Shown: piece after piece, positions 10,765-37,498 of the stretch
Layout of the letters: each line of letters begins with the position of its first letter
Numbering within the stretch: position 1 is the stretch's first letter
From: Syntrophales bacterium
Lineage (GTDB): Bacteria > Desulfobacterota > Syntrophia > Syntrophales > PHBD01
DNA: 64,000 nucleotides
Assembly (NCBI GenBank): GCA_963668175.1
Contig: OY764159.1
Location: forward strand, 1,760,001 to 1,824,000
Direction: 5' to 3'
Notes under the pieces: generated by a model
Told to the model about the DNA's origin: nothing
Database searches by the model: none
What the model saw: only the letters and a program-made list of their open reading frames with translations
Program-made: the position numbers and the translations under genes

Positions 10765-10775
10765 GGGGGCGGATC

Positions 10776-11555: not shown

Positions 11556-11564
11556 GAAGGAGGA

Positions 11565-12347: not shown

Positions 12348-12371
12348 GGCGGAGAAAGGAGAAAAAGAGCA

Positions 12372-14446: not shown

Positions 14447-14458
14447 TCATTAAAGGAG

Positions 14459-15613: not shown

Positions 15614-15713
15614 CGGATTGAAGAAGCGAAAGGAAGGGGGTGATGCCCGGAAGCAGCAGACGACAGATAGTTTCAGATGTTCGCAAACAAATAAAGAGAG
15701 GGGATATGCAACT

Positions 15714-17515: not shown

Positions 17516-17662
17516 CGTGGTCATTTTATGTCGTCAAACCTGTCTTCATACCAACAGATGAAAATAGCGCACATTTCTCTTGACCAGCAGGTTGTCGGTT
17601 CGATCCCGGCAGGGCTTACCGAATATCAAGGGGTTGCGAAATTCGTAACCCCTTCTTTTTTT
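17516..17662 (+). repeat. att-like site 2 (degenerate tRNA-Lys 3' half at 17576-17621)
   Basis: Core matches site 1 at 40/46 nt by manual count. Same AAATAGCGCACATT arm at identical spacing and same downstream hairpin. Confidence 0.9.
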
Positions 17663-17962
17663 AATATAGTAACCATATCATATCGTGCCGAATCCCTAAG
17701 CAGCATACGTCGCAGGTATCGTTCTGCCGACACCGATTGTGCCGATAGACAGGAATCCTTCCCCAATATCATCTAGAGCCGTCTGAATTGGCTGAGAATG
17801 GGAAAGAAGGGATTTTGACCTGATTGTCAAAATGATTTCTATTTTCATCTCAAACTGAACCTTCGAAAAAAGATAGATCTCGTCAGATGGCCAGCGGTGA
17901 CTTGGATATAACCATCTTATCCTCATCAAAGGTATCCATACTGCCTTGTGTCGAATAATTTA

Positions 17963-17998
17963 TGTTCCGAATCAGGACGAGTGTTCGGGATCGGAACA
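17963..17998. promoter_or_regulatory. Probable upstream activator sites for the AcoR-like protein
   Basis: Two adjacent 17-bp imperfect palindromes TGTTCCGAATCAGGACG and TGTTCGGGATCGGAACA about 100 bp upstream of a sigma54 promoter. Confidence 0.65.
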
Positions 17999-18099
17999 TC
18001 TGAAAAACCGATGCTTTTCCGGAAGACACAAGGCACGAATCAAAAAAATCACAATCATAATAATGGACTGCAGCCGGTCAAGCCGCCGGCCGTCGATGA

Positions 18100-18115
18100 C
18101 GGCATGCAAATTGCC
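18100..18115 (+). promoter_or_regulatory. sigma54 -24/-12 promoter
   Basis: CGGCATGCAAATTGCC = GG-N10-GC, 58 bp before the E1-alpha start. Confidence 0.8.
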
Positions 18116-18172: not shown

Positions 18173-19156
18173 GTGAAAACCTATGACCGCAACTTACTGG
18201 TTCTTCTTTATACGAAAATGATCGGCATCCGACTGTTTGAAGAGAAAGTGGGGGAATTGTTTTTGGCGGGCGACCTTCCCGGGTTCGTTCATCTCTATAT
18301 CGGCGAGGAGGCCGTGGCCGTGGGGATTTGTGCGAACCTGGATGACGACGATTATATCACCAGCACCCATCGCGGGCATGGCCATTGTATCGCGAAGGGC
18401 GCTGACCCGGCACAAATGATGGCGGAAATTTTCGGCAAGAAAACGGGTTATTGCCGGGGTAAGGGCGGTTCGATGCACATTGCCGATTTCAAAATCGGCA
18501 TGCTCGGCGCCAACGGCGTCGTGGGCGGCGGGTTCAATATCGCCGTGGGGGCGGCCCTGGCGGCGAAAATGCGAAAGTCGCGGCAGGTATCGGTCTGCTT
18601 CTTCGGCGACGGCGCTTCCAACAGGGGCACTTTTCACGAAAGTATGAACATGGCGGCCGTCTGGGAATTGCCGGTCGTTTTTGTGTGCGAAAACAACCAA
18701 TGGGCTTCGACGACGCCCTATCGCTCGACGACATCGGTCGAGGATATCGCCTGCAGGGCCGCGGCCTACGGCATACCGGGCGTCGTCGTGGAGAAGGGCA
18801 ACGACGTATTCAAGGTCTACGAAGCGGCCAGAGACGTCGTAGAGCGGGTCCGTCGGGGAGAAGGCCCCATCCTGATGGAAGTGAAGACATATCGGATCAA
18901 GGGCCACTTTGTCGGCGATCCGGAACTATACCGCGACAAGAAGGAAGTGGAGGAGATCTTCCGGTCGGACGATCCCGTCCGCAATTTTACGGAAACGGTA
19001 TTGAAGAATGGCTGGCTCAAACAGAAAGAACTCGACGCGATCCAGGCCGAAACAATGCAGATTCTGGAACAGGCGATTGAAAACGCCCGACGGGACCCTT
19101 ATCCGGAAGATCATGAGCTTTATGCCGGCCTCTATGTAGAAAGCGAGGTTAACTGA
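18173..19156 (+). CDS. acoA: TPP-dependent dehydrogenase E1 alpha (acetoin dehydrogenase AcoA-like)
   Basis: Motifs GFVHLYIGEEA, THRGHGH, GDGA...NN (TPP), YRIKGHFVGD. AAGGAGG RBS before GTG 18173. Confidence 0.85.
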   Translation: MKTYDRNLLVLLYTKMIGIRLFEEKVGELFLAGDLPGFVHLYIGEEAVAVGICANLDDDDYITSTHRGHGHCIAKGADPAQMMAEIFGKKTGYCRGKGGSMHIADFKIGMLGANGVVGGGFNIAVGAALAAKMRKSRQVSVCFFGDGASNRGTFHESMNMAAVWELPVVFVCENNQWASTTPYRSTTSVEDIACRAAAYGIPGVVVEKGNDVFKVYEAARDVVERVRRGEGPILMEVKTYRIKGHFVGDPELYRDKKEVEEIFRSDDPVRNFTETVLKNGWLKQKELDAIQAETMQILEQAIENARRDPYPEDHELYAGLYVESEVN

Positions 19157-19159
19157 CTT

Positions 19160-20134
19160 ATGCGGGAGATTACCTTTTCGGAAGCGACCCTGGAAGCGAT
19201 GACCGAGGAGATGCAGCACGACGACCGGGTATTCATCATGGGGGAAGACATCGCGCGGCAGGGCGGCATCTTCGGGCAGTTTAAGGGGCTTCCCCAGAAG
19301 TTCGGCTGCAATCGTGTGATGGACACGCCGATCTCCGAGACGGCCATCGTCGGCGCCGGAATCGGCGCGGCCATGGCCGGCATGAGGCCGGTCATCGACA
19401 TGCACTTTGTGGATTTTATCACCGTCGCCATGGACGAAGTTGTCAACCAGATGGCCAAGATCCCGTTTATGTTCGGCGGTCAGTGCAGGCTTCCCCTCGT
19501 GCTCAGGGCTCCCGACGGCATCATCAGGTCGGCGGCCGCCCAGCATTCGCAGAGTTTGGAGGCGTGGTTTCTCCATGTGCCCGGCCTGAAGGTTGTCATT
19601 CCGTCAAGTCCGGCCGACGCCAAGGGCTTGCTGAAGGCGGCGATCCGAGACGACAACCCGGTTCTGTATTTCGAGCACAAGGTCTTGTTCGCCATGCGGG
19701 GACCCGTACCCGAGGGAGAGCACATCACGCCGATCGGCAAGGCCAATGTCGTGAAGGAGGGGAGGGACGTCACGATCGTATCTTACTCCCTGATGCTCCA
19801 GCGCGTGCTGGAAGCGGAGAAGACATTGTCCTCCCGGGGAATCGATGCGGAAGTTATCGACTTAAGGACGATATCGCCCATCGACAAGGAGACGATATTC
19901 AAATCCATTGCCAAGACCAAGCGCCTGGTCATCGTCCACGAGGCTGTCAAAACCGGCGGCGTCGGGGCCGAAATCGCCGCCCTTGTTTCCGAAGAAGCAC
20001 TGGACTGCCTCGATGCACCCATCAAGCGCATAGGTGCCCCGTCCGTGCCGATACCGTTCAGCCCGCCGTTGGAGAAGCTGGTCAAAATCCACCCCGAGGA
20101 CATCGCGATGTCGGCCGCTGAAATATGCGGATGA
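19160..20134 (+). CDS. acoB: TPP-dependent dehydrogenase E1 beta (AcoB-like)
   Basis: Motifs MGEDI, DTPISE, AAQHSQ, FEHK, EVIDLRT. Confidence 0.85.
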   Translation: MREITFSEATLEAMTEEMQHDDRVFIMGEDIARQGGIFGQFKGLPQKFGCNRVMDTPISETAIVGAGIGAAMAGMRPVIDMHFVDFITVAMDEVVNQMAKIPFMFGGQCRLPLVLRAPDGIIRSAAAQHSQSLEAWFLHVPGLKVVIPSSPADAKGLLKAAIRDDNPVLYFEHKVLFAMRGPVPEGEHITPIGKANVVKEGRDVTIVSYSLMLQRVLEAEKTLSSRGIDAEVIDLRTISPIDKETIFKSIAKTKRLVIVHEAVKTGGVGAEIAALVSEEALDCLDAPIKRIGAPSVPIPFSPPLEKLVKIHPEDIAMSAAEICG

Positions 20135-20231
20135 CGGAAAGTCAGGCGGGATGAAAAGGAAGAAAAGAGAGAGGATCGATAGGAAGGATCTGAAATATCA
20201 AAACAGCCGAAATCTTGAAGGAGGGTTGAAG

Positions 20232-21563
20232 ATGTCAAATTCCACTATTTCCGCGGATGCGGTAAATGGCGCCGTTGCCGTTGAAGGGCTGGAACAGCGC
20301 GTCATTAAGAAGGTCTTCTGGCACATTATCCCGTTCCTGTTTTTGTTGTATATCGTTGCCTTTCTGGATCGGGTGAATGTCGGGTTCGCAGCCCTGTCCA
20401 TGAATAAGGACCTGGGATTCAGCAATGCCGTGTACGGGCTGGGTGCCGGGATATTTTTCATCGGCTATTTCATCATGGAGATACCGGGCAACCTGATCAT
20501 GGCCAAAGTGGGCGCCCGGATCTGGATTGCGCGGATTCTCATCACCTGGGGTTTGATTTCCGGCGCCACGGCATTCGTGAGCACCCCCACGCAATTCTAT
20601 ATCGTCCGCTTCCTCCTGGGGATTGCGGAAGCGAGTTTCTTCCCGGGCATCATCTACTATCTGAGCACGTGGTATCGTCAGAAAGACCAGGCCAAAGCGG
20701 TGGCCCTGTTCATGATGTCCCTTCCCATCTGCAATATCGTGGCCGCTCCGGTCTCCTCCTATCTCATCGGCATCAGCTGGATGGACTGGGCGGGGTGGAA
20801 GTGGCTGTTCATCCTGGAGGCCGCGCCGTCCGTCATCCTTGGAATCTTGACGCCGTTCTACCTGACCGACAAACCGGAACAGGCGAAGTGGCTGGACAAG
20901 GAGGAAAAGGGCTGGCTGACGGGGGTTCTGGCCGAGGAAAAATCCGCCATCGTCAAGAAAAAGCATTACACGCTTCTGCAGGCTTTTACGGATAAGGATG
21001 TCCTGGTCCTGTCAGGGATATACTTCGCGTGGGTCTGCGGTTTCTACGGTGTTACCATGTTCCTGCCCATCCTCGTCAAGGCGCTGTCGGCAAAAATCAG
21101 CAATCAGATGGTCGGTTTCCTTGTCGCCGTGCCGTATATCGGAGCTTTTTTAAGCATGTACTTCATCAGCCGCCATTCGGACCGGACCAAGGAGAGACGT
21201 TACCACACGATCCTGAGCCTCCTCGTCGGCGCAATCGGCCTGGCCGGAAGCGTCTACCTGGCCAACATCAGCGTTTTCGTTTCCATGGTCTTCTTCACGA
21301 TTGCCGTGATGGGCATCTACGGCGCTTTCGGTCCCTTCTGGTCCATTCCGCCATCCTTCCTGACCGCTTCCGTTGCCGCCGGGGCCATCGCCATGATCAA
21401 CAGCATCGGGAATCTCGGCGGCTTCGTCGGCCCGTACGCGATGGGGTATATCCGGGAGGCCACGGGATCGTTCAACGGCGGGGTCATGTTCCTGGTGGCT
21501 TGTCTGGTTTTTGCGTCGTTACTTGTGCTGACGCTGCGAAAAGCGAAGACGGCCGAATCGTGA
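20232..21563 (+). CDS. MFS transporter (tartrate transporter-like)
   Basis: Motifs AFLDRVNVGFA, GAGIFFIGY, GARIWIARI, INSIGNLGGFVGP. Start ATG 20232 after GGAGG. Confidence 0.9.
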   Translation: MSNSTISADAVNGAVAVEGLEQRVIKKVFWHIIPFLFLLYIVAFLDRVNVGFAALSMNKDLGFSNAVYGLGAGIFFIGYFIMEIPGNLIMAKVGARIWIARILITWGLISGATAFVSTPTQFYIVRFLLGIAEASFFPGIIYYLSTWYRQKDQAKAVALFMMSLPICNIVAAPVSSYLIGISWMDWAGWKWLFILEAAPSVILGILTPFYLTDKPEQAKWLDKEEKGWLTGVLAEEKSAIVKKKHYTLLQAFTDKDVLVLSGIYFAWVCGFYGVTMFLPILVKALSAKISNQMVGFLVAVPYIGAFLSMYFISRHSDRTKERRYHTILSLLVGAIGLAGSVYLANISVFVSMVFFTIAVMGIYGAFGPFWSIPPSFLTASVAAGAIAMINSIGNLGGFVGPYAMGYIREATGSFNGGVMFLVACLVFASLLVLTLRKAKTAES

Positions 21564-21644
21564 AAGCGAGCGAGGAAAAGGGCGGGAAGATTCAGGAGCA
21601 GGGCATACAAACGATCAATAAACTCAAGCGAAGGAGACTCGAAA

Positions 21645-22643
21645 ATGGCAACAAAAATGTATTATGAAAAAGACGCGGATATCACCTTGCTGAAAGATAA
21701 GATCATCGCCATTATCGGCTACGGCAGCCAGGGACATGCTCAGGCACAGAATCTCAGGGACAGCGGCGCGAACGTCGTCGTGGCGGAATTGGCGGGATCC
21801 GAGAATTATCAGCTGGCCGTAAAAGACGGCTTCAAGCCCGTAACCGCCGCGGAAGCGGCCGAGAAGGCGGACATCATCCAGATGCTGGCGCCCGATCAGG
21901 CCCAGGCATCCATCTACCGCACGGCGGTCGAGAAAAATCTGAAAGCCGGGAAAGCCCTGGTCTTCTCGCACGGCTTCAATATTCACTACGGGCAGATCGT
22001 TCCCCCTAAAGATATCGATGTATTCATGATCGCCCCCAAAGCGCCGGGACACCTGGTCAGACGGGTGTTCACCGAGGGGAGCGGCGTTCCGTGCCTTGTG
22101 GCGGTGTTTCAAGATCATTCCGGCAAGGCGAAGGAATGCGCCCTCGCCTACGGCAAGGGTATAGGCGGAACGCGGGCCGGTATCATCGAAACCACCTTTG
22201 CCGAGGAGACGGAGACCGATCTGTTCGGCGAGCAGTGCGTGATCTGCGGCGGCGTGACCGCGCTGGTCAATGCCGGTTTTGAAACACTCGTAGCCGCCGG
22301 TTATCAGCCGGAAATCGCCTATTTCGAATGTCTCCACGAACTCAAGCTCATCGTGGACCTCATGTACGAAGGCGGCATGGCGAGGATGCGCTACTCCATC
22401 AGCGACACCGCGGAATACGGAGACATGACGCGCGGACCGCGCATCATCACGGAAGAAACGCGAAAAGAGATGGCGCGCATCCTGGGGGATATCCAAACCG
22501 GCAAATTCGCGACGGAGTGGATTTTGGAAAACCAGGCGGGCTGCGCCGGTTTCAAGGCGTTGCGCAGGATAAACGCCGAGATGCTGATTGAAAAAGTCGG
22601 GGCAGGGCTCCGGGGCATGATGACCTGGTTGAAGAAAAAGTAG
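21645..22643 (+). CDS. ilvC: Ketol-acid reductoisomerase (class I)
   Basis: Motifs [48 protein letters not shown]. Confidence 0.96.
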
Positions 22644-22692
22644 GCTTCGCCGGGCCGGGAATTCTATGCACTTGAGGGTTGGAAAGGAGAAA

Positions 22693-24030
22693 ATGATTAT
22701 GGGGGATTCGCTGGAAGACGCTGTGGCGGCAACGGGGGTAGGGGTCGCCGACGTCGCCGAGAGCGCAAGGAGAAAGGCCTATATCAACATTGTCCTGCCT
22801 CTCTTTCTCACGTCGGTTATCGCCTATATCGATCGCGTGAACATCGGCTATGCAGCCTTGACGATGAACAAGGATCTGGGCTTTACGGCGCAGATGTTCG
22901 GCATGGGGGCGGGGATCTTTTTCGCGGGGTATATCCTGTTTGAGATTCCCGGGGCGCTGATCGCCGAGAAGTACAGCCCGAAGGTTTGGCTGGCGCGGAT
23001 CATGATTACGTGGGGGCTGGTTTCCGGTTTGATGGCCCTGATGACGACCGCGTGGCAGTTCTATCTCATTCGCTTTCTTCTGGGGGCGGCCGAAGCCAGC
23101 CTGTATCCCGTGATTTATGCGTCGTGCGTCCCGCGCTGGTTCAGCGCCAAGGATCGGGCGCGTGCCATAGCATTGCTCCTGACGTCCCTGCAGATCTCCG
23201 GCATCGTCGGAGCGCCGCTGGCCGGATGGCTGATCGGAGTGCCGCTTTTCGGGCTGAAAGGCTGGCAGGGCCTGTTTATCCTGGAAGCCATACCGGCGGT
23301 CCTGTTTGGCTTTGTGATTATTTACTGGATGGCGGACTGGCCGGAAAAGGCGAAATGGCTGACGGACGACGAAAAGAAATTCCTTACGGAGCAGTACGAG
23401 AGGGAAGTGGCGGCCAAGAAGGCCGTCAGGAACTATTCCGTGTGGGAAGCCTTTTCCAATCCGGAAGTCCTGAAACTCTGCCTTGCCTATTTCCTCTGGA
23501 TCACCGGATTCTGGGGTTTCAACTACTGGATGCCCACCGTGCTCAAGGGCGTATCCGGCTGGTCGAACCTGGCGATCGGCTGGCTCGTCGTGATACCGAT
23601 GGCTTGTTCCCTTCTTTTCATGCTTTACATCGGGCATTCGTCGTCGAAAACGGGTGAAAAAAGATGGCACGGGGCCATCGGCTTGTTCATCGGCGCCGTC
23701 GGCATGGGCATCGGGGTGTTTATTAAAGATCCATGGATCAGCTTCTTCTTTGTCGTCCTGGCCGGCATCGGCGTGTATGCGCCCTTCGGCGTCTGGTGGT
23801 CCTACCCGACGACTTTTCTTTCCGGGACCGCCGCAGCCGGCGCCATCGGCCTCATCAACTCCTGCGGGAACGTGGGCGGGTTCGTGGGACCCTATATCAC
23901 CGGCTACATCAAGGATGCGACGGGTTCGTTTGTCGGGGCGTGGGTGTACCTGGCCTGTTCGCTGACACTGGGCGCTCTTCTGATCCTGACGTTCAGGAAG
24001 CAGCCTACGGATAGTCTCAAGACGGATTAG
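22693..24030 (+). CDS. MFS transporter (tartrate transporter-like), second copy
   Basis: Motifs AYIDRVNIGYA, GAGIFFAGY, INSCGNVGGFVGP; AAGGAG RBS. Confidence 0.9.
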   Translation: MIMGDSLEDAVAATGVGVADVAESARRKAYINIVLPLFLTSVIAYIDRVNIGYAALTMNKDLGFTAQMFGMGAGIFFAGYILFEIPGALIAEKYSPKVWLARIMITWGLVSGLMALMTTAWQFYLIRFLLGAAEASLYPVIYASCVPRWFSAKDRARAIALLLTSLQISGIVGAPLAGWLIGVPLFGLKGWQGLFILEAIPAVLFGFVIIYWMADWPEKAKWLTDDEKKFLTEQYEREVAAKKAVRNYSVWEAFSNPEVLKLCLAYFLWITGFWGFNYWMPTVLKGVSGWSNLAIGWLVVIPMACSLLFMLYIGHSSSKTGEKRWHGAIGLFIGAVGMGIGVFIKDPWISFFFVVLAGIGVYAPFGVWWSYPTTFLSGTAAAGAIGLINSCGNVGGFVGPYITGYIKDATGSFVGAWVYLACSLTLGALLILTFRKQPTDSLKTD

Positions 24031-24059
24031 CTGCTTGCGGAGACGGTTTGTATGGAAAA

Positions 24060-24097
24060 CGGCCGGATGAAACGCGCCTGTTCTCTTCATCCGGCCG
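24060..24097. repeat. Intergenic 12-bp inverted repeat
   Basis: CGGCCGGATGAA ... TTCATCCGGCCG. Confidence 0.65.
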
Positions 24098-24187
24098 ATG
24101 ACAATGTGCCGTCAGGAACTGTATTCTCATATGCCGTTTCCGATAATATCCCGACCGACGGCAATGAACTTAAGGGGAAGACTGTAC

Positions 24188-24895
24188 GTGAGCAGTGCGC
24201 CGGAATGGCAGTATGACGAAAGTAAGTTCCCCGGTATCGACTACGCACGGGACGAGGTTGTCGCCGCTTACGATTGCCTCCATAAAAAATTCCGGGACTA
24301 TGCGAAGGCGGCCGACGAGATCGTTCGCCGTCTTGGTCTTGGCGCCGGCAGCACGGTGATCGATTTCGGTTCGGGTACGGGGGCCTTCGCCTTGCATGCG
24401 GCCAAAGTATGCCGAACGGTTTATGCCGTCGATATCTCGGCGGCAATGATCGAATACTGCCGCCGGCGGGCAGCGGAGCTGGGACTGACGAACATCGTGT
24501 TCCGCCATGGCGGTTTGCTGTCATACGAACACAAGGCCGAGGCGGCCGATGCGGCGGTGTGCGTGGCCGTGCTTCATCACCTGCCGGATTTCTGGAAGGC
24601 GGCCGCCCTCAGCCGCTGCCGGGACGCGCTGAAGCCGGGGGGAAAACTTTTGCTCTTCGATATCGTTTTCCCCTCCGGAGAAGCCGATCTGACGCAAGAG
24701 ATCGACGGCTGGATATCGTATCTCAATACACTGGCCGATGCGCGCTTGGCGGAGGAAGCGGCGATCCATGTCCGGGAAGAGTTCAGCACATATGACTGGA
24801 TCATGGAAGGCATGATCCGAAGAAGCGGTTTCCATATCGATTCGGCGGAGTATGCAGCCGGCTTTGCGGCGACCTATATCTGTACAAATAAATAA
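24188..24895 (+). CDS. Class I SAM-dependent methyltransferase
   Basis: Motif I VIDFGSGTG, plus AVDIS, LHHLPD, LKPGG. Start uncertain; GTG 24188 behind AAGGGG chosen. Confidence 0.85.
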   Translation: MSSAPEWQYDESKFPGIDYARDEVVAAYDCLHKKFRDYAKAADEIVRRLGLGAGSTVIDFGSGTGAFALHAAKVCRTVYAVDISAAMIEYCRRRAAELGLTNIVFRHGGLLSYEHKAEAADAAVCVAVLHHLPDFWKAAALSRCRDALKPGGKLLLFDIVFPSGEADLTQEIDGWISYLNTLADARLAEEAAIHVREEFSTYDWIMEGMIRRSGFHIDSAEYAAGFAATYICTNK

Positions 24896-24957
24896 TGGAG
24901 GCGGAAGGCGGGCGGCCGTTCGGCGCGTGCCTTCCTGCAGCGGAAGGAGTGTGGAAC

Positions 24958-26217
24958 ATGGCGGTGAACGTCATCATGCCTCAACTGGGTCTGACGATGA
25001 CCGAGGGCATGGTTACCAAGTGGCATAAGGCGGCCGGCGAAAAGATTGCGAAGGGCGAAGTCCTGGTGGAGATCATGACCGAAAAGATTACCCAGCAGAT
25101 TGAATCGCCCGCAGACGGCGTCGTTTTGGCCATTCTGGTTCCGGAAGGGGCAACAGTGCCGGTCAAAGCTTTATTGGCCGTCATCGGCGAAGAAGGAGAA
25201 CGGGTGGATCATACTGCGCCCACCGGAAATAATGAAGACGAAGGGCCGAACGGGCAATCGAATGTCGCTGCCGTCAAGGCGTCGCCGGCGGCCAAAAAAC
25301 TGGCCCGCGAAAGCGGTGTCGATCTGACGCTGGTGACAAGTACGGGCAGCGGCGGGCGGCTGACGGAAAAGGATGTGCTGCGGTACCTGGACGGGCAGAA
25401 AAAGAAAATTCGTGCAACGCCCCTGGCGGCGAAAATCGCCGTAGAACAGAACATCGATCTGTCCGGGATAAGCAAGGAAGGCAGAATCGCCAAAGCGGAC
25501 GTATTGGCGGCAGTCGCGAAAGCGGAAGGCCCGTCACCCGGGGCGGAGGAGGCGTCATCCGTGCCCCTCGCCGGGACGCGGAAAATAATTGCAGACCGGA
25601 TGAGTTTGAGCTGGCATACGGCGCCGCATGTGAATCTGACCGTGTCGGTTGACATGTCGTCCGTCGTCGGTCTGAATAGGAACACCAAAGCCGAGAAGAA
25701 ATTTTCCGTTACGGAAATGATGGTCGCCGTTGCCGCCCGGGCATTGTCCGAATACGGCGACATCAATGCCAGTCTCGTGGACGGCAAGGTGATGCGGTAC
25801 AAGACCGTCAATATCGGTGTGGCCGTCGCCCTCGATAAGGGATTGATCGTCCCGGTCATCAGGGATGCCCAGAGAAAAGGCTTGCCCGCGATCCGGAGGG
25901 AAATCGCCGATCTCGCCGCCAGGGCGCGGCAGGGGGGCTTGCTGCCCGAGGAAGTGACCGGCGGGACGTTCACGATAACCAATCTCGGCATGTTCGGCGT
26001 GGACCATTTCGCCCCGATCATCAATCCGCCGGAAAGCGCCATCCTGGCCGTGTGCCGCGTCGTCGACCGGCCGGTGGTCGTGGACGGCGCCGTCGAAATC
26101 CGGCCGATGGCGAACCTGTGCCTGTCCTTCGATCACCGTCTGATCGACGGCGCTCTGGCCGCCAGGTTCATGGCGCACGTCCGCGAATTGATGGAACAGC
26201 CGCTGTTGCTGCTCTAG
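24958..26217 (+). CDS. acoC: Dihydrolipoamide acyltransferase E2 (AcoC-like)
   Basis: Lipoyl domain (TEKI), two subunit-binding repeats (ASPAAKKLA, ATPLAAKIA) and DHRLIDG catalytic motif. Confidence 0.88.
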   Translation: MAVNVIMPQLGLTMTEGMVTKWHKAAGEKIAKGEVLVEIMTEKITQQIESPADGVVLAILVPEGATVPVKALLAVIGEEGERVDHTAPTGNNEDEGPNGQSNVAAVKASPAAKKLARESGVDLTLVTSTGSGGRLTEKDVLRYLDGQKKKIRATPLAAKIAVEQNIDLSGISKEGRIAKADVLAAVAKAEGPSPGAEEASSVPLAGTRKIIADRMSLSWHTAPHVNLTVSVDMSSVVGLNRNTKAEKKFSVTEMMVAVAARALSEYGDINASLVDGKVMRYKTVNIGVAVALDKGLIVPVIRDAQRKGLPAIRREIADLAARARQGGLLPEEVTGGTFTITNLGMFGVDHFAPIINPPESAILAVCRVVDRPVVVDGAVEIRPMANLCLSFDHRLIDGALAARFMAHVRELMEQPLLLL

Positions 26218-26269
26218 GCCGATGAAGGAACATATCCTGCGATCGGTAATAAAATGATGAGGTAGGCGA

Positions 26270-27670
26270 ATGAAAAGAGTCGTCGTCATAGGCGGAGGCC
26301 CTGCGGGCTACGTGTCGGCCATCCGCGCCGCGCAACTGGGGGCGGAAGTCCATCTGGTGGAAAACGGCCGGTTGGGCGGCACATGTCTGAATGTCGGCTG
26401 TATTCCCACCAAGGTGCTGCTCCATTCGGCCGATCTGTACCGCCTGGTCAGGTGCGGTAAAATTGCCGGTCTGAGTGCGGAAAAAGCGGATATGGACTGG
26501 CCGGAATTGCTGCGCCACAAGCAGGCGGTAATCGCCCGATTGGTCGGGGGCGTCGAAGGCTTGTTGAAGGCGAACAAGGTCGAGGTCCATCGGGGCCTCG
26601 CTTCCCTCATGGACGGCCGCACGGTGGAGATCGAGAACGTCCGGCCGCAGAGGCTGACCGCCGATGCCGTTGTCCTGGCAATGGGATCGGTGCCGCTCAA
26701 GTTGCATTTTCCCGGAGCCGATCTGCCCGAGGTGATAGACAGTACGGCAGCGCTGGAACTGCGGCATGTGCCGAGCTCGCTGGTCATCATCGGCGGCGGC
26801 GTCTTGGGCGTGGAGTTCGGGGCCCTGTTCAGCGCCTTGGGCTCCCAAGTCACGATCGTCGAAATGCTTCCGGAAATTCTGCCCGGGCTGGACAGGAAGA
26901 TTGCCGCCGCCGTGAAGCGGGAGATGGAAGGCCGCGGCATCAGCTTCCTCACCGGCAGCCGGGTTGCCGGTGTAAGTAAGGGTTCCACAGGCCTGACGGT
27001 CAAGGCCGTTGGGGGCGATACCGCTCGTGATCTGTCCGCCGATTATGTGCTGGTGGCGGCAGGTAGAGTGCCCGCAACGGAATATATCGGCCTGGAAAAG
27101 GCGGGCATAGAAATGCGTGGTGCAAAGATCGCCGTAGACGAAAATTTCCGTACCAATGTCCCTGGTATTTATGCCGCGGGCGACTGCAACGGTGAACTCA
27201 TGCTGGCTCATGCGGCTTCCGCCCAGGGGATCGCAGCCGTGGAGCATGCACTGACGGGGCATGCTTCCTATCATAAAAACACCATCCCGTCCTGCATCTA
27301 TACTTCCCCGGAAGTCGCCTCCGTGGGATGGACAGAAGAAGAGGCGGATCGTCAGGGATTGCAATATAAAGCCGGCGTCTTTCCGCTGGCGGCGAACGGA
27401 AAGGCCTGCATAGAAGACGGTTCGTCGGGACTCATCAAGATCGTGGCCGGGGCCAGGTACGGCGAAATTCTCGGGGTGCATATTTACGGTCCCCGTGCCA
27501 CGGAGCTGATCGCCGAGGCGGCTTTGGCCATCCGCCTGGAAGCGACGGCGGACGAGCTGGTTTCCACGATTCATCCCCACCCGACGATCAGCGAAGCGCT
27601 GGGGGAGGCGGCGCTTGCGGTGAACGGCAGCAGCATTCATTATTTCCGCAGGCCGTCATCCTTTCAATAG
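26270..27670 (+). CDS. lpdA: Dihydrolipoamide dehydrogenase E3
   Basis: Motifs GGGPAGY, GGTCLNVGCIPTK, HPHPTISE. Confidence 0.95.
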   Translation: MKRVVVIGGGPAGYVSAIRAAQLGAEVHLVENGRLGGTCLNVGCIPTKVLLHSADLYRLVRCGKIAGLSAEKADMDWPELLRHKQAVIARLVGGVEGLLKANKVEVHRGLASLMDGRTVEIENVRPQRLTADAVVLAMGSVPLKLHFPGADLPEVIDSTAALELRHVPSSLVIIGGGVLGVEFGALFSALGSQVTIVEMLPEILPGLDRKIAAAVKREMEGRGISFLTGSRVAGVSKGSTGLTVKAVGGDTARDLSADYVLVAAGRVPATEYIGLEKAGIEMRGAKIAVDENFRTNVPGIYAAGDCNGELMLAHAASAQGIAAVEHALTGHASYHKNTIPSCIYTSPEVASVGWTEEEADRQGLQYKAGVFPLAANGKACIEDGSSGLIKIVAGARYGEILGVHIYGPRATELIAEAALAIRLEATADELVSTIHPHPTISEALGEAALAVNGSSIHYFRRPSSFQ

Positions 27671-27677
27671 GTAAACT

Positions 27678-28352
27678 ATGGACGGAAACAACGGCAGGAA
27701 CAGACGATGCGCCTTCCAGCGGGAAGGGGTCGTAACGTACGAGCACGGCCTGGAACTGCAGGAAACCGCGCGCGGTCTGGTGGAGAAGGGTGAGTGGGAC
27801 GGGATTTTGCTCCTGCTTGAGCATGCGCCTGTGATCACCGTCGGGAGCGGCGGCGGCCTGGAGCATCTGCGTACCGATGCGGATACGCTCGCGGGAAGGG
27901 GCATTGCCGTCCTCCGCTCCGAACGGGGCGGTAATATCACCTGTCACAATCCGGGACAGCTCGTCGGCTACCCGGTCCTCAATCTGAGTCTCTGGCGCCG
28001 CGATTTATCCTGGTACAGGGAATCCCTGGAAGAGACGCTGATCAGGACCCTCGCACGTTTTGGAATCGTCTCCGGGCGAAAGGCCCGTTACAACGGCGTG
28101 TGGGTGGAGGACAGTAAAATCGCCGCCATCGGCGTGACGGTCCGGAACTGGATCACGAAGCACGGCTTTGCCCTGAACGTCCAAAACGATCTGGCCTTGT
28201 TTCAGGACATCGTCCCCTGCGGGATTCGCGATTATGGAGTTACAAGTCTGGTCGAAACGGCCGGCAGGCCGATGGGAATGGACGAAACGGCCGCTGCCTT
28301 GGTTGAGGAATTCTCTTTCGTCTTTCGATGCGCCGTAAGGGAATTGCAATGA
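27678..28352 (+). CDS. lipB: Lipoyl(octanoyl) transferase
   Basis: Motifs LEHAPVIT, RGGNITCHNPGQ, KIAAIG, HGFALNV, IVPCG. Confidence 0.93.
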   Translation: MDGNNGRNRRCAFQREGVVTYEHGLELQETARGLVEKGEWDGILLLLEHAPVITVGSGGGLEHLRTDADTLAGRGIAVLRSERGGNITCHNPGQLVGYPVLNLSLWRRDLSWYRESLEETLIRTLARFGIVSGRKARYNGVWVEDSKIAAIGVTVRNWITKHGFALNVQNDLALFQDIVPCGIRDYGVTSLVETAGRPMGMDETAAALVEEFSFVFRCAVRELQ

Positions 28353-29263
28353 TCCGAAATGATGGGGCAAAGACACCGGCGATCGATACGAAAAAGCCCG
28401 CGTGGCTGGTTCAGCGGTTCCGCGGCGGCGACGCGTTCAACGGCATGGTCGATCTCCTCACGGATCTCGGTTTGAATACGGTCTGCCAGAGCGCCTCCTG
28501 CCCCAATATCGGGGAATGCTTTAATGCCGGGACGGCCACTTTTTTAATTCTCGGTGGCCTGTGTACAAGGAACTGCCGGTTCTGTGCCGTGCCGAAGGGA
28601 CAGCCGAGCTCACCCGATCCGGACGAGCCGGGAAAAGTCGCGCAGGCGGCCCGGGTCGCGGGTATCAGGCATGCCGTTGTCACGTCCGTTACGCGCGACG
28701 ACCTTGACGATGGCGGTGCGGACCAGTTTGTCCGTTGCATTCAACGCCTCCGCGAGACGGTTCCGGAGACCTCCGTTGAGGTCCTGACGCCCGATTTTCG
28801 AGGTGACAGAAAGGCGTTGCGGGCCGTTCTGGCCGCTGGACTGGATGTGTTCAATCACAATGTGGAGACGGTACCGCGACTCTATCCGTTGGTGAGACCG
28901 GGAGCCGATTACCATCGTTCCCTGCGAATGTTGCGCGAAGCGGCCCGTCGCATCAGGGTTGTCAAGAGTGGGATCATGGTCGGCATGGGAGAGGACGAGA
29001 AAGAGGTGCGAGGGGTCTTTCGCGATCTCGTCGCCGCCGGTGTCGCGGTCCTCACCATCGGACAATATCTGAGACCTTCCCCCGGGCAAATGGAGGTGGT
29101 CGAATACGTCCATCCCGAGCGGTTCCGTTCATACGGGGAGATGGCGCTGGCGGCCGGGTTCAAGTCCGTGGCGGCCGGGCCGCTGGTGCGCAGTTCTTAT
29201 CATGCGGAACGGTTATTTGGAAACGGGATACCCTGCCCGATACCGCCGGCCGACGCCCGGTAA
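28349..29263 (+). CDS. lipA: Lipoyl synthase
   Basis: CQSASCPNIGEC auxiliary cluster motif, CTRNCRFC radical-SAM motif, VRSSY; ATGA overlap with lipB. Confidence 0.95.
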   Translation: MIRNDGAKTPAIDTKKPAWLVQRFRGGDAFNGMVDLLTDLGLNTVCQSASCPNIGECFNAGTATFLILGGLCTRNCRFCAVPKGQPSSPDPDEPGKVAQAARVAGIRHAVVTSVTRDDLDDGGADQFVRCIQRLRETVPETSVEVLTPDFRGDRKALRAVLAAGLDVFNHNVETVPRLYPLVRPGADYHRSLRMLREAARRIRVVKSGIMVGMGEDEKEVRGVFRDLVAAGVAVLTIGQYLRPSPGQMEVVEYVHPERFRSYGEMALAAGFKSVAAGPLVRSSYHAERLFGNGIPCPIPPADAR

Positions 29264-29511: not shown

Positions 29512-30111
29512 ATGATCGAAAAACAGATTGCCGACAGCATGCGAAAGATCCGTAATTCCAAGGGAATGACGCTGAAACAGCTGGGCGAGAAAATCGGCAT
29601 TTCTCCCGGCATGCTTTCTCGCCTGGAAAACAATCAGTCGTCGCCTCCCATTGCGACGCTGGCGAAGATCGCCCAGGGACTGGACGTTCCCATCAGCGTT
29701 TTTTTCGAGGGCAACGGTGACGACACGGATCTCAAATATATCGTGACACGCAGCGACCGGCGCCGCCAGGTGATACGCCGCGGCAGCGATATCGGATTCA
29801 TTTATTACGCCTTCAACACCGCCAGGGACCTTCACCTCATTGAAGCCTTCGTGATGGAGCATCCCCCGCTCCGAAAGAAAATGAAAGTTCTGTTCGATCA
29901 CCCGGGGGAGGAGCTTATTCTGGTATTAAAGGGTACCATAGAACTGGTCTACGGCTATGAGACGATACGCCTGGAGGAGGGCGATGCCATCCACTTCGAT
30001 CCCTCGGTTCCCCATCGCGCCCAGAACGTGGGTAAGGAGAAGTCGGAATGCCTGGTGGTCATTGCCGGTCAAAAGGGCTATTTCAAACGCAACAACGCAA
30101 CATCCGCATAA
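29512..30111 (+). CDS. XRE-family HTH regulator with C-terminal cupin domain
   Basis: HTH TLKQLGEKIGIS...LSRLENN; cupin motifs HPGEE and GDAIHFD...PH. Confidence 0.92.
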   Translation: MIEKQIADSMRKIRNSKGMTLKQLGEKIGISPGMLSRLENNQSSPPIATLAKIAQGLDVPISVFFEGNGDDTDLKYIVTRSDRRRQVIRRGSDIGFIYYAFNTARDLHLIEAFVMEHPPLRKKMKVLFDHPGEELILVLKGTIELVYGYETIRLEEGDAIHFDPSVPHRAQNVGKEKSECLVVIAGQKGYFKRNNATSA

Positions 30112-30363
30112 CGTTATTTTCCCTGCCCGTCTCCCTCCGGAATGTCTTCCGGAGCTTTGTTGCTCTATGCGCGGCGACGCGATCCTTTCCGGTTGGCCCG
30201 AAAGCGGGGCATTGCCTCCTGCAGTTGGTTGATATCGGGGGTAGGTCCATGCCGGACGTGTGCCCGATCAGTGCCTCATCCCTCTAAATAGCCTCTTCAC
30301 AGTGAAGGCGGAATGTCAAACCTGAAAGGTGTCGGTCTTGTTTTTGATGCCGACAAAATAAAC

Positions 30364-30598: not shown

Positions 30599-32566
30599 AT
30601 GGTACGCGAACTTGCCACGAGTATGCCCGATGACTTTGCCGGATTCAACAGATCGGAAGCGAATACCTTTAGACCTTCCACCCTGAGACCCATTATCATG
30701 GATTCCTGGAGAAGGTCGAGGGAGTATGGGGTCTATCGGGAGGAGTGCGTCAGCAGCGTCGTTCTGACTGCCGGGGAATTGGAACTCCTGCTGCGTAAAA
30801 ATTCCGAACTTATAGACGCCGCGATGCCTTTCATACACAATCTATACAGGCTTGTCGCCAGTTCGGGATTTGTGGTTATTCTTGTCGACAGGGAAGGATA
30901 CATTCTGGAGGTTGTCGGAGCCGTCGATCGGCTGGGTATCGCCGAGAATATCCATTATGTCAAAGGAATGAAATGGACCGAGGAACTTGTCGGCACGACC
31001 GCGATCGGACTTGCCCTTCGGGAGCGCCAGCCCATTCAAGTGGCGGGGGATGAGCACTATTGCTGCAGCTTCAGGAACTGGGCTTGCTCGGCGGCTCCGA
31101 TAGTCGATGAAAACAACGATCTTCTCGGCGTGTTGAGCGTCACAGGTTTGAAAAAGTATGTCCACTGCCACACCCTGGGCATGGCGGTGTCGGCGGCCAC
31201 CGCGATGACCAACATCCTGCGGGAAAGAAAAATCCAGAAAAAATTGGAGCAATCGGCCCAGATACATTCCACCATCGTTCATTCCATTTCCGACGGTCTT
31301 CTCATGCTGGACAAGAACGGTATCGTTACCTTCATCAACCCCACCGGGGCGCGAATACTGGGTGTGAAAAGGGATGAAGCCACGGGCAGACATATTTCAT
31401 CGATTGTCGATTTCAAACCCGTCGTGCTCCAGGTATTGGAGAGGGGCCAGGGGTATGCCGACAGGGAATTCTTTATCGAAACCAGGAAAGGCGTCGTGCA
31501 TTTCATCAAGACGGCCATTCCGATCAGGGACAAGGACGGCAACCTGGACGGGGTCATCGATATCTTCCGGGAGATCAAGAAGGTGCGCCAGTTGGTCAAT
31601 CGGATGGTGGGGTCGTCCGCTAAATTCTCTTTCGACGATATCCTGGGTTCGAGCGCGGCCGTCAAGGAAGTCGTTCGCATGGGGAAAATCGCCGCCAACA
31701 GCTTCGCCAATTTGCTGATCCAGGGGGAAAGCGGCACCGGCAAGGAGATGATTGCCCAGGCCGTCCATAATGCAAGCGCGCGGGCGGAAGGGCCGTTCAT
31801 CGCGATCAATTGCGGAGCTATCCCGCGGGATCTCGTCGAAAGCGAATTGTTCGGCTACGAGGAAGGGGCGTTTACCGGGGCGAGGCATAACGGCCGGCCG
31901 GGAAAATTTGAATTGGCCCACGGAGGAACCATATTCCTGGACGAAATAGGCGAGACGCCCGTGGACATCCAGGTAAAACTCCTGAGGGTGCTTCAGGATA
32001 AACGGATCCTGCGCGTCGGGGGGCAAAGGTATATCGATGTCGATGTGCGTGTTATCGCCGCGACGAATCTCGATTTGCATAAGGAAGTCAAAGAGGGGAA
32101 TTTCCGGAGCGATCTCTATTATCGTTTGAATGTGCTTCAGTTGATCGTGCCTCCCTTGCGAGAACGCGAGGGGGACATCGTCCAGTTGGCGGAATTTTTC
32201 TTTCGGAAAATGTGCGACCAGTTCCATGTGCCTTATAAGCGGGTTGCCAGGGAGGTATGGTCGGCGCTGGAAAAATACTCCTGGCCCGGCAATGTCCGGG
32301 AACTGGAAAACTGCATCGAAAGGGCGGTCAGCGTTTCGGAGGGCGACGAGATCCTCCCTACGCATCTCGCTCACAGCGTCTGGAACAGCGAAGACGAACC
32401 CGGCTCCGCCTCTTCATCGCTCAAGGCCATGGAGAAAACGACCATTATGAATGCAATCCGGAAAACAAAAGGCAATATAAGCCGGGCTTCCAAATTGCTG
32501 GGCATAGGGCGCAACACCCTGTACGACAAGATGCGCGAATATGCGATCAGGCCGTCGAGGGCATAA
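30599..32566 (+). CDS. acoR: sigma54-dependent activator, GAF-PAS-AAA+-HTH (AcoR-like)
   Basis: GAF (SWRRS, GTTAIG...CSAAPI), [22 protein letters not shown] and Fis-type HTH. Confidence 0.85.
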
Positions 32567-34814: not shown

Positions 34815-34830
34815 GCTAACCCTTTCTTTC

Positions 34831-35526: not shown

Positions 35527-35548
35527 CGCGCCGCTCCTTGGGGTCTTA

Positions 35549-36742: not shown

Positions 36743-36759
36743 AACCAAGCTCCCTTCTG

Positions 36760-37452: not shown

Positions 37453-37498
37453 GGGTTCCCCCGATTCCAGGACTTTCGTCGATGCATGCCTGCGTTTG

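Follow-up and report, generated by a model that had tools for sequence, protein, structure and literature searches.

Closest described systems

Among the closest described systems are the acetoin dehydrogenase operons (acoABCL), which include acoABCSL with lipB, budX and AcoR in Pelobacter carbinolicus and acoABCL-acoR in Bacillus subtilis. They share with the locus in our window (the whole 64,000-nucleotide stretch of DNA analysed) the genes for E1alpha-beta, a lipoyl-bearing E2 and E3, a sigma54-type promoter and a GAF-PAS-AAA+ activator; lipoate genes inside the cluster are likewise common to the window and the P. carbinolicus acetoin operon as described in PMC3543383. Unlike the acetoin operons, both the window and 19 of 20 related loci hold a carboxylate transporter inside the cluster; where the acetoin operons have butanediol dehydrogenases, the window has a ketol-acid reductoisomerase (KARI, IlvC) and a methyltransferase.

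The window KARI resembles the class I KARIs of biosynthetic ilvBNC clusters in domains, conserved residues and acidic loop type; unlike them, it does not lie beside ilvB, ilvN or ilvD, and is a second copy between two anion transporters. A precedent for a KARI-family gene outside branched-chain amino-acid synthesis, in a dedicated gene cluster, comes from the Burkholderia pseudomallei group, where the KARI homologue BurG has been recruited to make malleicyprol (PMC9359912). That report portrays BurG as a polyketide-cluster enzyme that has been remodelled and carries out new chemistry, whereas the window KARI is without remodelling and stands in a catabolic-type operon.

Gene content and layout

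Open reading frames and family profile calls give 12 genes, all on the + strand from E1alpha to the activator, and bear out the gene order proposed in a sequence-only reading of this DNA. The TPP-dependent E1alpha of PDH/acetoin type (18173..19156; PF00676, E=2.7e-89) has a GTG start behind AAGGAGG and scores 373.1 against TIGR03182, under the cut-off of 393.85. E1beta follows (19160..20134; PF02779 and PF02780; NF006667 380, cut-off 321), and then MFS1 (20232..21563; PF07690), a transporter of anion:cation symporter type whose likeness to TIGR00893/HpaX and TIGR02332 stays below their cut-offs; its longest frame begins at 20034, and its alignment to MFS2, a paralogue with 44% identity, begins at residue 67 of that long frame. 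Next come the extra class I KARI (21645..22643; KARI_N and KARI_C; NF004017 545 bits, cut-off 336), with the beta2-alphaB loop ELAGSEN, MFS2 (22666..24030; PF07690), which is the transporter common to the operon family, and a putative class I SAM-dependent methyltransferase (24098..24895; Methyltransf_25/11, no NCBIfam model above cut-off). The dihydrolipoamide acyltransferase E2 (24895..26217) combines lipoyl (PF00364), E3-binding (PF02817) and catalytic (PF00198) domains; this is a full catalytic E2 and not the lipoyl-plus-hydrolase AcoC form, which corrects the earlier label acoC. The operon continues with the dihydrolipoyl dehydrogenase E3 (26270..27670; TIGR01350 530.6, cut-off 408.8), the octanoyltransferase LipB (27678..28352; TIGR00214 157.3, cut-off 83.55) and the lipoyl synthase LipA (28328..29263; TIGR00510 354.4, cut-off 310.25). 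Downstream lie an HTH_3 plus cupin regulator identified by domain search (29512..30111), with a terminator-like hairpin after it, and a GAF-PAS-sigma54 AAA+-HTH_8 enhancer-binding protein of AcoR/DhaR architecture (30599..32566; NF008485 DhaR 433, below the cut-off of 551).

Intergenic gaps from E1alpha to LipA range from -25 to 97 nt, a spacing that suggests co-transcription. Both KARI junctions are bridged, with 0-1 differences, by contigs of two public studies, which excludes an assembly artefact as the cause of this arrangement. A tblastn search of the window, using the IlvB, IlvN and IlvD of this genome as queries, returned nothing, in agreement with the claim that ilvB, ilvN and ilvD are absent from it. 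An acyl-CoA beta-oxidation-like cassette is found just upstream, at 9820-17030.

Promoter and activator

The sigma54 promoter proposed earlier could be placed at a candidate -24/-12 element, CGGCATGCAAATTGCC (18100..18115, + strand; GG-N10-GC, 8/11 consensus positions), 76 nt before the E1alpha start. Such a motif alone is not above chance: the window contains 16 matches with two mismatches, where 22 would be expected; its position is common to the window and related operons, 14 of 19 of which show a -24/-12 match of at least 9/11 at -72 to -93. The genome also encodes rpoN. About 100-140 nt upstream of the element, a perfect 9-nt inverted repeat read from the sequence, ATGTTCCGA / TCGGAACAT (17962..17999, + strand, 20 nt apart), is a candidate activator binding site; no copy of its sequence turned up ahead of the related operons. 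A pattern scan located strong + strand terminators at 17628-17654 and 30135-30154, and no convincing one on that strand from 18173 to 29263.

The AcoR-like activator described in the cassette is indeed a GAF-PAS-sigma54 protein, orthologous to activators adjoining E1alpha in a Negativicutes operon family. It is 52-63% identical to those of 17 family loci; identity to the E1alpha-adjacent activators of 15 Negativicutes loci is 55-60% in the sensor half and 62-66% in the output half, the sensor figure holding throughout the family irrespective of transporter or dehydrogenase. The gene lies upstream of E1alpha in the family and downstream of lipA in the window. The E1alpha-LipA operon is probably driven by the sigma54 promoter together with this downstream-encoded activator.

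Origin of the dehydrogenase core

In 400 genomes of the host's own phylum the E1alpha reaches at most 59% identity (53-59% for the best E1s), whereas 30 of 301 genomes in a sample of the class Negativicutes contain matches of 62-72%; the best named hits come from Sporolituus, Sporomusaceae, Dendrosporobacter and Selenomonadales (Bacillota/Negativicutes). The 19 Negativicutes loci with the full operon (L309-L327) encode the activator, E1alpha-beta, a TRAP or MFS transporter, in some cases a second E1alpha-beta, E2, E3, LipB and LipA, and their core is orthologous to that of the window: E1alpha 63-72%, E1beta 69-83% (68% in L328), E2 43-56%, E3 53-64% and LipA 51-64% identical. For E2, the fetched clusters of the host's own order and phylum give only 33-40%. 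Among the 20 best loci fetched, 19 combine E1alpha-beta, E2 and E3 with a carboxylate transporter within the cluster (12 TRAP, seven MFS2-like), in most loci between E1beta and E2, and 17 have the orthologous activator; MFS2 of the window is 53-68% identical to the MFS transporter in that position in seven Negativicutes loci. The closer match of E1alpha to Negativicutes than to its own phylum indicates that the core (activator, E1alpha-beta, MFS2, E2, E3, LipB and LipA) is of foreign origin and belongs to the family seen in Negativicutes. We interpret this segment as a catabolic operon of accessory character, gained by horizontal transfer.

The slots flanking the family transporter vary. Where L312, L317 and L321 have the order E1beta-SDR-MFS-MDR-E2, the window has E1beta-MFS1-KARI-MFS2-methyltransferase-E2, so that the SDR and MDR slots, the latter holding a threonine-dehydrogenase-like protein, correspond to MFS1-KARI and the methyltransferase; in other family loci these slots are empty.

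A further comparison is offered by L246, a cluster in another family of the host's phylum that encodes an HTH-cupin protein, a methyltransferase, IlvD, a TakP-like TRAP system, E1alpha-beta, E2, E3 and a LipB-LipA fusion. Its HTH-cupin (53%), methyltransferase (51%) and E1alpha (54%) resemble those of the window, and it too groups an importer for carboxylates and an E1-E2-E3-lipoate block with an extra enzyme of the branched-chain pathway; one of the three IlvD-family genes in that genome lies inside the cluster. Unlike the window, L246 has IlvD for KARI and a keto-acid-type TRAP for MFS (binding protein of TakP/ketoacid type: 2hzk, 187 bits; 7ug8, 'Ketoacid-binding protein'), its E2 and E3 reach only 34-36% identity with those of the window, and the 17-kb stretch fetched contains no sigma54 activator.

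An intact extra KARI

A separate housekeeping ilvC exists in an ilvB-N-C-D cluster 1 Mb away (G000 756156-761316), and its product is 42% identical to the extra KARI; the genome has a single IlvD. The extra copy keeps 119 of 122 conserved columns, its three changes being conservative, which makes the native substrate pair the simplest assumption. Among the matches listed, it is up to 71% identical to the KARIs present as single copies in other families of the phylum; the host's own order uses a divergent 350-aa type. Its ELAGSEN loop has neither the Arg nor the last Ser found in NADPH loops and is similar to the DIPSSEN loop of the Thermacetogenium phaeum enzyme (Tp-KARI), for which a 74-fold NADH preference is tabulated (PMC5940873, Table 3); judged by its residues, the loop is of the NADH-preferring type. 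Since eight of ten acidic-loop KARI loci adjoin ilvBN, the loop marks a clade of biosynthetic KARIs and is not an adaptation to catabolism, and it says nothing on the direction of the reaction.

Conservation of the link between ilvC and the aco-like genes, which the sequence-only reading had raised, did not emerge in any set searched. It was absent from all of the 80 nearest KARI loci (72 adjoin ilvB or ilvN) and from all 40 relatives, where only the divergent KARI type is present. None of 400 phylum genomes contains a second canonical KARI among the matches listed, 288 genomes showing one match each, with 139 match rows besides those listed. Neither KARI nor the methyltransferase occurs in any of the 20 operon-family loci. 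The insertion of KARI into the dehydrogenase operon is a singleton in the sets searched.

Substrate and proposed pathway

The view that an acid suits this operon better than neutral acetoin is strengthened by the carboxylate transporters of 19 of the 20 loci and by the carboxylate-binding Arg/Arg/Asn triad kept in the TRAP binding proteins. Because the family is built round a carboxylate importer, the E1 substrate is most likely a small organic acid and not neutral acetoin; and since 12 TRAP loci and two MFS loci (L320 and L326) have no dehydrogenase gene between E1beta and E2, the anion taken up would be expected to serve E1 directly as substrate. The structure 4p8b presumably holds acetolactate. 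In the family TRAP binding proteins, R165/R186/N226 are invariant and are spaced like the 4P47 carboxylate triad Arg152/Arg173/Asn213 given in PMC11668362. Their closest solved relatives, at only 29-31% identity and with the top rows tied, are small hydroxy-acid binders, recorded there with pantoate or erythronate, and the TRAP ligands from the EFI screen, as reviewed in PMC5812351, include 2-acetolactate and pantoate/D-erythronate.

An intact extra KARI amid importers and a dehydrogenase suggests that an unusual hydroxy-acid is fed into a cleavage pathway. MFS1 would import (2R)-2,3-dihydroxyisovalerate, perhaps also its isoleucine-pathway homologue, and the extra KARI, running in reverse with NAD+, would yield 2-acetolactate or 2-aceto-2-hydroxybutyrate. 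E1 would then attack the acetyl carbonyl and free pyruvate or 2-oxobutyrate, in a reversal of the second half-reaction of acetolactate synthase, and the hydroxyethyl-TPP would be converted through E2 and E3 to acetyl-CoA and NADH, while MFS2 would take up the E1 substrate directly. The KARI equilibrium favours the dihydroxy acid, so the reverse reaction would need pull by E1. This route from dihydroxyisovalerate through acetolactate to pyruvate and acetyl-CoA is chemically coherent and is our best guess, held tentatively. The same route had been proposed from the sequence, and it gains from the second ilvC, the NADH-type loop and the acid substrate; against it, the ilvC-aco link is conserved nowhere searched.

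Alternative explanations

As the E1alpha scores closest to PDH-type models (TIGR03182, as above; human PDH E1alpha, 200 bits), a plain 2-oxo acid has to be considered seriously as the substrate instead. The complex would then be an ordinary 2-oxo-acid dehydrogenase forming an acyl-CoA from an imported 2-oxo acid, or from a 2-hydroxy acid oxidised by an accessory dehydrogenase, with KARI contributing an (R)-2-hydroxy-acid/2-oxo-acid reductase side activity in reverse. Possible conversions are pantoate to ketopantoate, 2-hydroxyisovalerate to 2-oxoisovalerate, or glycerate to hydroxypyruvate. KARI also reduces ketopantoate and other 2-oxo acids, but these side activities are slow, and an enzyme with a new main substrate should show some divergence, whereas this one is undiverged at conserved positions. 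The full catalytic domain of E2, the beta-oxidation-like cassette upstream and L246, where a TakP/ketoacid-type TRAP is paired with an extra IlvD that would make a 2-oxo acid, fit a 2-oxo-acid dehydrogenase, as do the pantoate and erythronate ligands in PMC11668362; the Negativicutes TRAP binding proteins, however, are not of the TakP keto-acid type. We consider both this function and the corresponding KARI role unlikely.

A lower probability still attaches to a classical acetoin/2,3-butanediol operon in which MFS1-KARI and the methyltransferase are passengers of mosaic recombination or are being lost. It would account for the singleton KARI link and for the unrelated contexts of the methyltransferase family (79 of 80 metagenome loci and 11 of 12 phylum genomes); some sources also name the E1alpha relatives 'acetoin:DCPIP oxidoreductase subunit alpha', the family SDR scores 225-233 bits, below the cut-off of 270, for meso-butanediol dehydrogenase, and P. 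carbinolicus acoABC(L) operons are described with lipA/lipB, an SDR butanediol dehydrogenase and AcoR (PMC3543383). Yet neutral acetoin would not lead one to expect carboxylate transporters with an intact triad, and passengers would hardly be an intact KARI spaced by gaps of 81 and 22 nt, inserted exactly in two accessory slots and not at random. Similarly improbable is a KARI working in its normal direction, in which acetolactate, imported or formed as an E1 carboligation by-product, is reduced with NADH to dihydroxyisovalerate; the subsequent step, in which the single housekeeping IlvD would make 2-oxoisovalerate that then goes into valine or pantothenate, or is oxidised to isobutyryl-CoA by the complex, is just as doubtful. 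Its canonical sequence and NADH-type loop, as in biosynthesis in anaerobes, the TRAP-mediated uptake of 2-acetolactate mentioned in the review PMC5812351 and the tie of IlvD to E1-E2-E3 in L246 are consistent with it. It would, however, depend on an IlvD encoded 1 Mb away and set E1 and KARI in competition for one compound, and there is no obvious reason for a biosynthetic helper between two importers under a catabolic-type activator.

The methyltransferase is without a role in the proposed dihydroxyisovalerate pathway. It falls in generic methyltransferase clusters of the Atlas, and the exceptions to the unrelated contexts of its relatives are L246 and L131.

Organization of the operon and its control region

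Genes were called from an open reading frame list combined with Pfam and NCBIfam scans of the window, and this reproduced the gene order that the sequence-only reading had given. All genes of the operon lie on the forward strand and comprise E1alpha (18173-19156, with a GTG start), E1beta (19160-20134), a first transporter, MFS1 (20232-21563), a class I KARI (21645-22643), a second transporter, MFS2 (22666-24030), a class I SAM methyltransferase (24098-24895), an E2 with lipoyl, E3-binding and catalytic domains (24895-26217), E3 (26270-27670), LipB (27678-28352) and LipA (28328-29263). They are followed on the same strand by an HTH-cupin regulator (29512-30111) and by an activator of GAF-PAS-σ54 AAA+-HTH_8 architecture (30599-32566), which starts 1.3 kb downstream of lipA. 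Both transporters belong to the anion:cation symporter type, share 44% identity and resemble TIGR00893/HpaX proteins with scores below the cut-offs. Intergenic gaps in the operon range from -25 to 97 nt, and a pattern scan placed strong forward-strand terminators solely at 17628-17654, before the cluster, and at 30135-30154, after the HTH-cupin gene. The gene arrangement is real, since both KARI junctions are spanned, with 0-1 differences, by contigs that come from two public studies. The absence of ilvB, ilvN and ilvD was also borne out, no homologue of IlvB, IlvN or IlvD being encoded within the window, and tRNA genes, as markers of an island, were likewise not found there.

A σ54 promoter served by an AcoR-type activator had been proposed for this operon. 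The activator part of the proposal stands on its domain architecture, and rpoN is present in the host genome; the promoter part is retained as a candidate. A scan of the window allowing at most two mismatches returned 16 matches, against 22 expected by chance, and none of them falls in the E1alpha promoter region. The candidate is a forward-strand GG-N10-GC element at 18100-18115 (CGGCATGCAAATTGCC), 76 nt before the E1alpha GTG, which agrees with 8 of 11 consensus positions, has three mismatches and would not stand out by itself; what speaks for it is its conserved position, as 14 of the 19 loci of the Negativicutes operon family described below carry a σ54 element matching at least 9 of 11 positions at the same place, 72-93 nt before E1alpha. 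Approximately 100-140 nt upstream of the candidate element, a perfect 9-nt inverted repeat is a candidate activator site. Sought as TGTTCCG/CGGAACA, the repeat is absent from the upstream regions of the related operons, where the lone half-site match, in locus L312, lies inside the -24/-12 element. A further inverted repeat, of 15 nt (AGAAGGGATTTTGAC / GTCAAAATGATTTCT, 80% complementary, 17805-17840), lies after the terminator that precedes the cluster and ahead of the candidate activator site; it may serve as an operator, the HTH-cupin regulator being one protein that could bind it.

The operon carries an additional KARI

The protein encoded between the two transporters contains the KARI_N Rossmann domain (PF07991, E=1.5e-73) and the knotted KARI_C domain (PF01450, E=3e-63), and exceeds the curated cut-offs of NF004017 (545 bits, cut-off 336) and TIGR00465 (434, cut-off 226), which identifies it as a class I IlvC (EC 1.1.1.86). 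Compared with the KARIs of the 80 nearest loci, which were drawn from species representatives and are 56-71% identical, it keeps 119 of the 122 columns in which conservation among these relatives reaches at least 93%, and the changes (Y/F, G/A and I/L) are all conservative.

A separate housekeeping ilvC, whose existence the sequence-only reading had marked for checking, is present in the host genome within an ilvB-ilvN-ilvC-ilvD cluster (G000:C1:756156-761316). The KARI encoded there has 350 aa, is 42% identical to that of the window, and scores 219 on NF004017, below the cut-off of 336, and 312 on TIGR00465, above the cut-off of 226. All 40 relatives from the same family and order (loci including L002 and L004-L022) possess only this divergent KARI of about 350 aa, at 38-43% identity to the window's, while 288 of the 400 genomes of the phylum sample have one KARI at 62-71% identity and none has two, among the matches listed. 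The additional KARI thus resembles the KARI ordinarily found in other lineages of the phylum and looks acquired by transfer.

The β2-αB loop of the window KARI, ELAGSEN, has neither the Arg nor the terminal Ser that mark NADPH loops of the LRxGSxS type, a departure that concerns the cofactor and not family membership; the housekeeping KARI has the loop QREGTAS. The window loop resembles DIPSSEN of the Thermacetogenium Tp-KARI, for which a 74-fold preference for NADH is listed (PMC5940873, Table 3). Because eight of the ten acidic-loop KARIs among the nearest relatives adjoin ilvB and ilvN, an NADH-type loop is not a mark of catabolism.

The gene-neighbourhood search that had been suggested for ilvC with acoABC returned no second case. 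Genes for E1, E2, E3, MFS transporters and methyltransferases are all missing from the neighbourhood of KARI in the 80 nearest loci; the single exception, an unrelated one, is a lipA about 9 kb off in a Zymomonas locus. In 72 of these 80 loci KARI is adjoined by ilvB or ilvN, neighbours that the window KARI does not have. The E1alpha-E1beta-E2-E3(-LipBA) clusters of the relatives are plain, with E1alpha at most 56% identical to the window's, and KARI is absent from the best 20 E1alpha loci of the phylum sample (53-59% identity). Among the loci compared, the link between ilvC and the dehydrogenase genes is a singleton. The literature searched, which lay outside subscription journals and supplements, describes KARI in no operon of this kind and, on dihydroxyisovalerate, yielded no catabolism but only production and engineering work. 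For a KARI-family gene outside amino-acid synthesis, BurG is a precedent, with the difference that BurG is described as remodelled (PMC9359912) and the window KARI is not.

The dehydrogenase core belongs to an operon family of Negativicutes

A TPP-dependent E1alpha-E1beta pair, a lipoyl E2 and an E3 are encoded together, as in Aco systems, according to Pfam and NCBIfam. E1alpha misses the PDH equivalog level (373.1 against a cut-off of 393.85 on TIGR03182, and 244.5 against 411.35 on TIGR03181), and E1beta passes NF006667 (380 against 321), a model of subfamily and not of equivalog rank. The best matches of E1alpha in a search of 5.8 billion proteins are two metagenome proteins, P0002 (87%) and P0003 (76%), followed at 65-72% by proteins of Sporolituus, Selenomonadales, Negativicutes, Sporomusaceae and Dendrosporobacter, a placement beside Bacillota. 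E1alpha at 62-72% identity occurs in 30 of the 301 genomes sampled from the class of a Sporomusa genome, and we defined the operon family from the 20 kb around the best 20 of these 30 matches.

The full set of E1alpha, E1beta (69-83% identity), E2 (43-56%) and E3 (53-64%) was recovered in 19 of the 20 loci, accompanied by LipB in 17 and LipA in 18 of the 19, and the activator is present at 52-63% identity in 17 of the family loci. Each of the 19 loci has a carboxylate-type transporter inside the cluster, namely a TRAP DctPQM system in 12 and an MFS protein 53-68% identical to MFS2 in seven; it is mostly situated between E1beta and E2, and between the activator and E1alpha in L310, L311 and L315. 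By its orthologous core (52-83% identity, in 17-19 of the 20 loci) and its in-cluster carboxylate transporter, the window operon is a member of this family. No conserved extra genes were found flanking the Negativicutes operons, so the unit is self-contained. The sensor half of the window activator (residues 1-335) is 55-60% identical to those of 15 family activators, nearly as conserved as the output half (62-66%), and a shared or similar inducer is therefore likely. A published description of this operon type, with activator, E1alpha-E1beta, carboxylate transporter, E2, E3 and LipBA, was not found in the literature searched outside subscription journals. The locus is similar to the Pelobacter-type acetoin/pyruvate dehydrogenase operon, which is described as having lipoate genes, an SDR and AcoR too (PMC3543383); the window E1alpha falls below the PDH cut-off, and the family is built around carboxylate importers.

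Among the seven MFS-type loci, five have a 248-aa SDR between E1beta and the transporter, and three have a 350-aa zinc dehydrogenase between the transporter and E2, which scores 371-379 on the L-threonine 3-dehydrogenase model (cut-off 380). In the window, MFS1-KARI occupies the SDR slot and the methyltransferase that of the zinc dehydrogenase. The 12 TRAP-type loci and the MFS-type loci L320 and L326 have no dehydrogenase in these slots; in these loci, therefore, E1 should act on the imported compound itself.

Loci L311, L313-L316 and L318 encode two E1alpha-E1beta pairs, with E1alpha approximately 70% and 49% identical to that of the window, together with one E2 and one E3, which suggests one complex with two substrate specificities. 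The host genome itself has a second E1alpha-E1beta ... E2-E3 cluster (L115, G000:C1:3533000-3553000), whose E1alpha is 48-49% identical; about 2.7 kb separate E1beta from E2, and a divergent MFS gene adjoins.

Nature of the imported compound, probably an acid

Three residues, R165, R186 and N226, are invariant in all 12 TRAP binding proteins of the family, and their spacing is that of Arg152, Arg173 and Asn213 of 4P47, which are reported as carboxylate-binding residues (PMC11668362). As the triad is kept with this spacing, the family most likely imports an organic anion; the preference of the sequence-only reading for an acid substrate over neutral acetoin is thereby supported. The conserved in-cluster carboxylate transporters point, indirectly, away from acetoin as the substrate.

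The closest solved relatives of the binding proteins are 4p8b (208 bits, 31%, Z 34.0), which we take to be an acetolactate complex, and 4p47 (205 bits, Z 33.3). By sequence score 4pdd, 4p9k/4pak, 4pdh and 7bbr follow, and structure comparison interleaves 4pf8, 4ovq, 4p1l/4p3l, 8t9t and 4xeq with these. According to the IseP paper, pantoate or erythronate is the ligand of homologues in this group, and 2-keto-3-deoxygluconate that of 7BBR (PMC11668362), and the TRAP ligands from the EFI screen named in a review include 2-acetolactate and pantoate/D-erythronate (PMC5812351). At about 30% identity, and with the top rows tied, this gives only a hint that the family ligands may be small 2-hydroxy acids.

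Proposed route and alternative readings

The simplest assumption for the additional KARI is its native pair, acetolactate and dihydroxyisovalerate, because the enzyme is unchanged at conserved positions. On this assumption, MFS1 would import dihydroxyisovalerate, KARI would oxidise and rearrange it with NAD+, E1 would cleave the resulting acetolactate in a reversal of the acetolactate-synthase ligation, releasing pyruvate, and E2 and E3 would produce acetyl-CoA and NADH; direct import of the E1 substrate, known from the arrangement of other family members, would fall to MFS2. This scheme, in outline that of the sequence-only reading and leading from dihydroxyisovalerate through acetolactate to pyruvate and acetyl-CoA, would be self-contained within the operon; we favour it over the alternatives, but tentatively, as one that may well prove wrong. 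The reverse reaction of KARI has an unfavourable equilibrium, and the enzyme has side activities on other 2-oxo acids. These side activities would suit a reading in which KARI acts as a 2-hydroxy-acid dehydrogenase and supplies a 2-oxo-acid dehydrogenase with its substrate; next to a KARI with intact conserved columns, we judge it rather unlikely. A KARI working forward in the salvage of acetolactate, with no ilvD beside it in the window, appears distinctly improbable to us. A classical acetoin operon carrying passenger genes would agree with the Aco-type gene set and with the singleton linkage of ilvC, and is set against the carboxylate importers retained throughout the family, which leave it a slim chance.

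The acetolactate-cleaving scheme may be extended, although we doubt that the extension will hold, to the whole family, whose members would then be 2-aceto-2-hydroxy-acid-cleaving complexes (acetolactate + CoA + NAD+ -> pyruvate + acetyl-CoA + NADH) with accessory genes that funnel dihydroxy acids into acetolactate, here through a xenologous KARI run in reverse. If this were true, the acetolactate-synthase ligation would proceed backwards on a lipoate-dependent complex in a family now annotated as acetoin or pyruvate dehydrogenase, secondary fermenters could use acetolactate and similar hydroxy acids released by other microbes, and 2,3-dihydroxyisovalerate would for the first time have a catabolic route, through the xenologous reverse KARI. 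The known function of KARI is biosynthetic, and a catabolic, reverse-running form would be a new role for it; an acetohydroxy-acid-cleaving lipoate complex would open a new way for products excreted by fermenting bacteria to enter central metabolism. The current annotation is doubtful, since these "acetoin/pyruvate dehydrogenase" operons of anaerobes are built around carboxylate importers. Should KARI be a passenger, the locus would still be a clear case of slot-wise mosaic operon assembly with donors from different phyla.

The methyltransferase and comparable gene clusters

Searches with the methyltransferase retrieved only generic small-molecule methyltransferases from the PDB by sequence (the best being MitM, 41 bits), nothing above cut-off in NCBIfam, and generic class I methyltransferase clusters in the Atlas. 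The contexts of its family are unrelated in 79 of 80 metagenome loci, with heterogeneous neighbourhoods, and in 11 of 12 phylum genomes. A context resembling that of the window is found in L246 (G256:C55, from another family of the phylum), which encodes an HTH-cupin regulator and a methyltransferase, 53% and 51% identical to those of the window, respectively, followed by IlvD, TRAP, E1alpha-E1beta, E2, E3 and a LipB-LipA fusion. Its IlvD scores 720 bits on TIGR00110 (cut-off 618) and is one of three IlvD-family genes in G256, and its TRAP binding protein is closest to TakP and a "ketoacid-binding protein". The metagenome contig L131 has, in this order, the HTH-cupin, TRAP, IlvD and methyltransferase genes. 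Placed beside the window, L246 and L131 indicate that a linkage of extra branched-chain-pathway enzymes with carboxylate importers and E1-E2-E3 blocks has arisen on more than one occasion, in a small number of cases. The combination of HTH-cupin regulator, class I methyltransferase, IlvD-family dehydratase and TRAP transporter recurs in L246 and L131, and in L246 it continues into E1-E2-E3-LipBA, where the LipB-LipA fusion, of 555 aa (L246:14327-15994), ends the cluster.

Neighbouring cassettes in the window

Small carboxylate-catabolic cassettes follow one another in the window, and each has an MFS importer of its own. One, at 579-4455 on the forward strand, encodes an acyl-CoA dehydrogenase, an acetyl-CoA hydrolase/transferase and an MFS transporter. 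Another, just upstream of the operon at 9820-17030 on the same strand, is β-oxidation-like, with two CoA-transferase subunits, an enoyl-CoA hydratase, a 3-hydroxyacyl-CoA dehydrogenase, a thiolase, an acyl-CoA dehydrogenase and an MFS protein; it is preceded by a PAS-LuxR regulator (7832-9421) and ends at the 12-bp-stem terminator at 17628-17654. Downstream, at 33999-40420 on the reverse strand, a stretch of raised G+C (0.60-0.63) encodes a CN-hydrolase, a GntR/FCD regulator, a 4Fe-4S dihydroorotate-dehydrogenase-like protein, DUF2848 and three 2-oxoacid:ferredoxin oxidoreductase subunits; a CN-hydrolase is also found within the Negativicutes operon L310. At 42741-44756 on the forward strand, the genes for a Glu/Leu/Phe/Val dehydrogenase and, after it, a D-glutamate cyclase homologue lie behind that for a GntR/FCD regulator.
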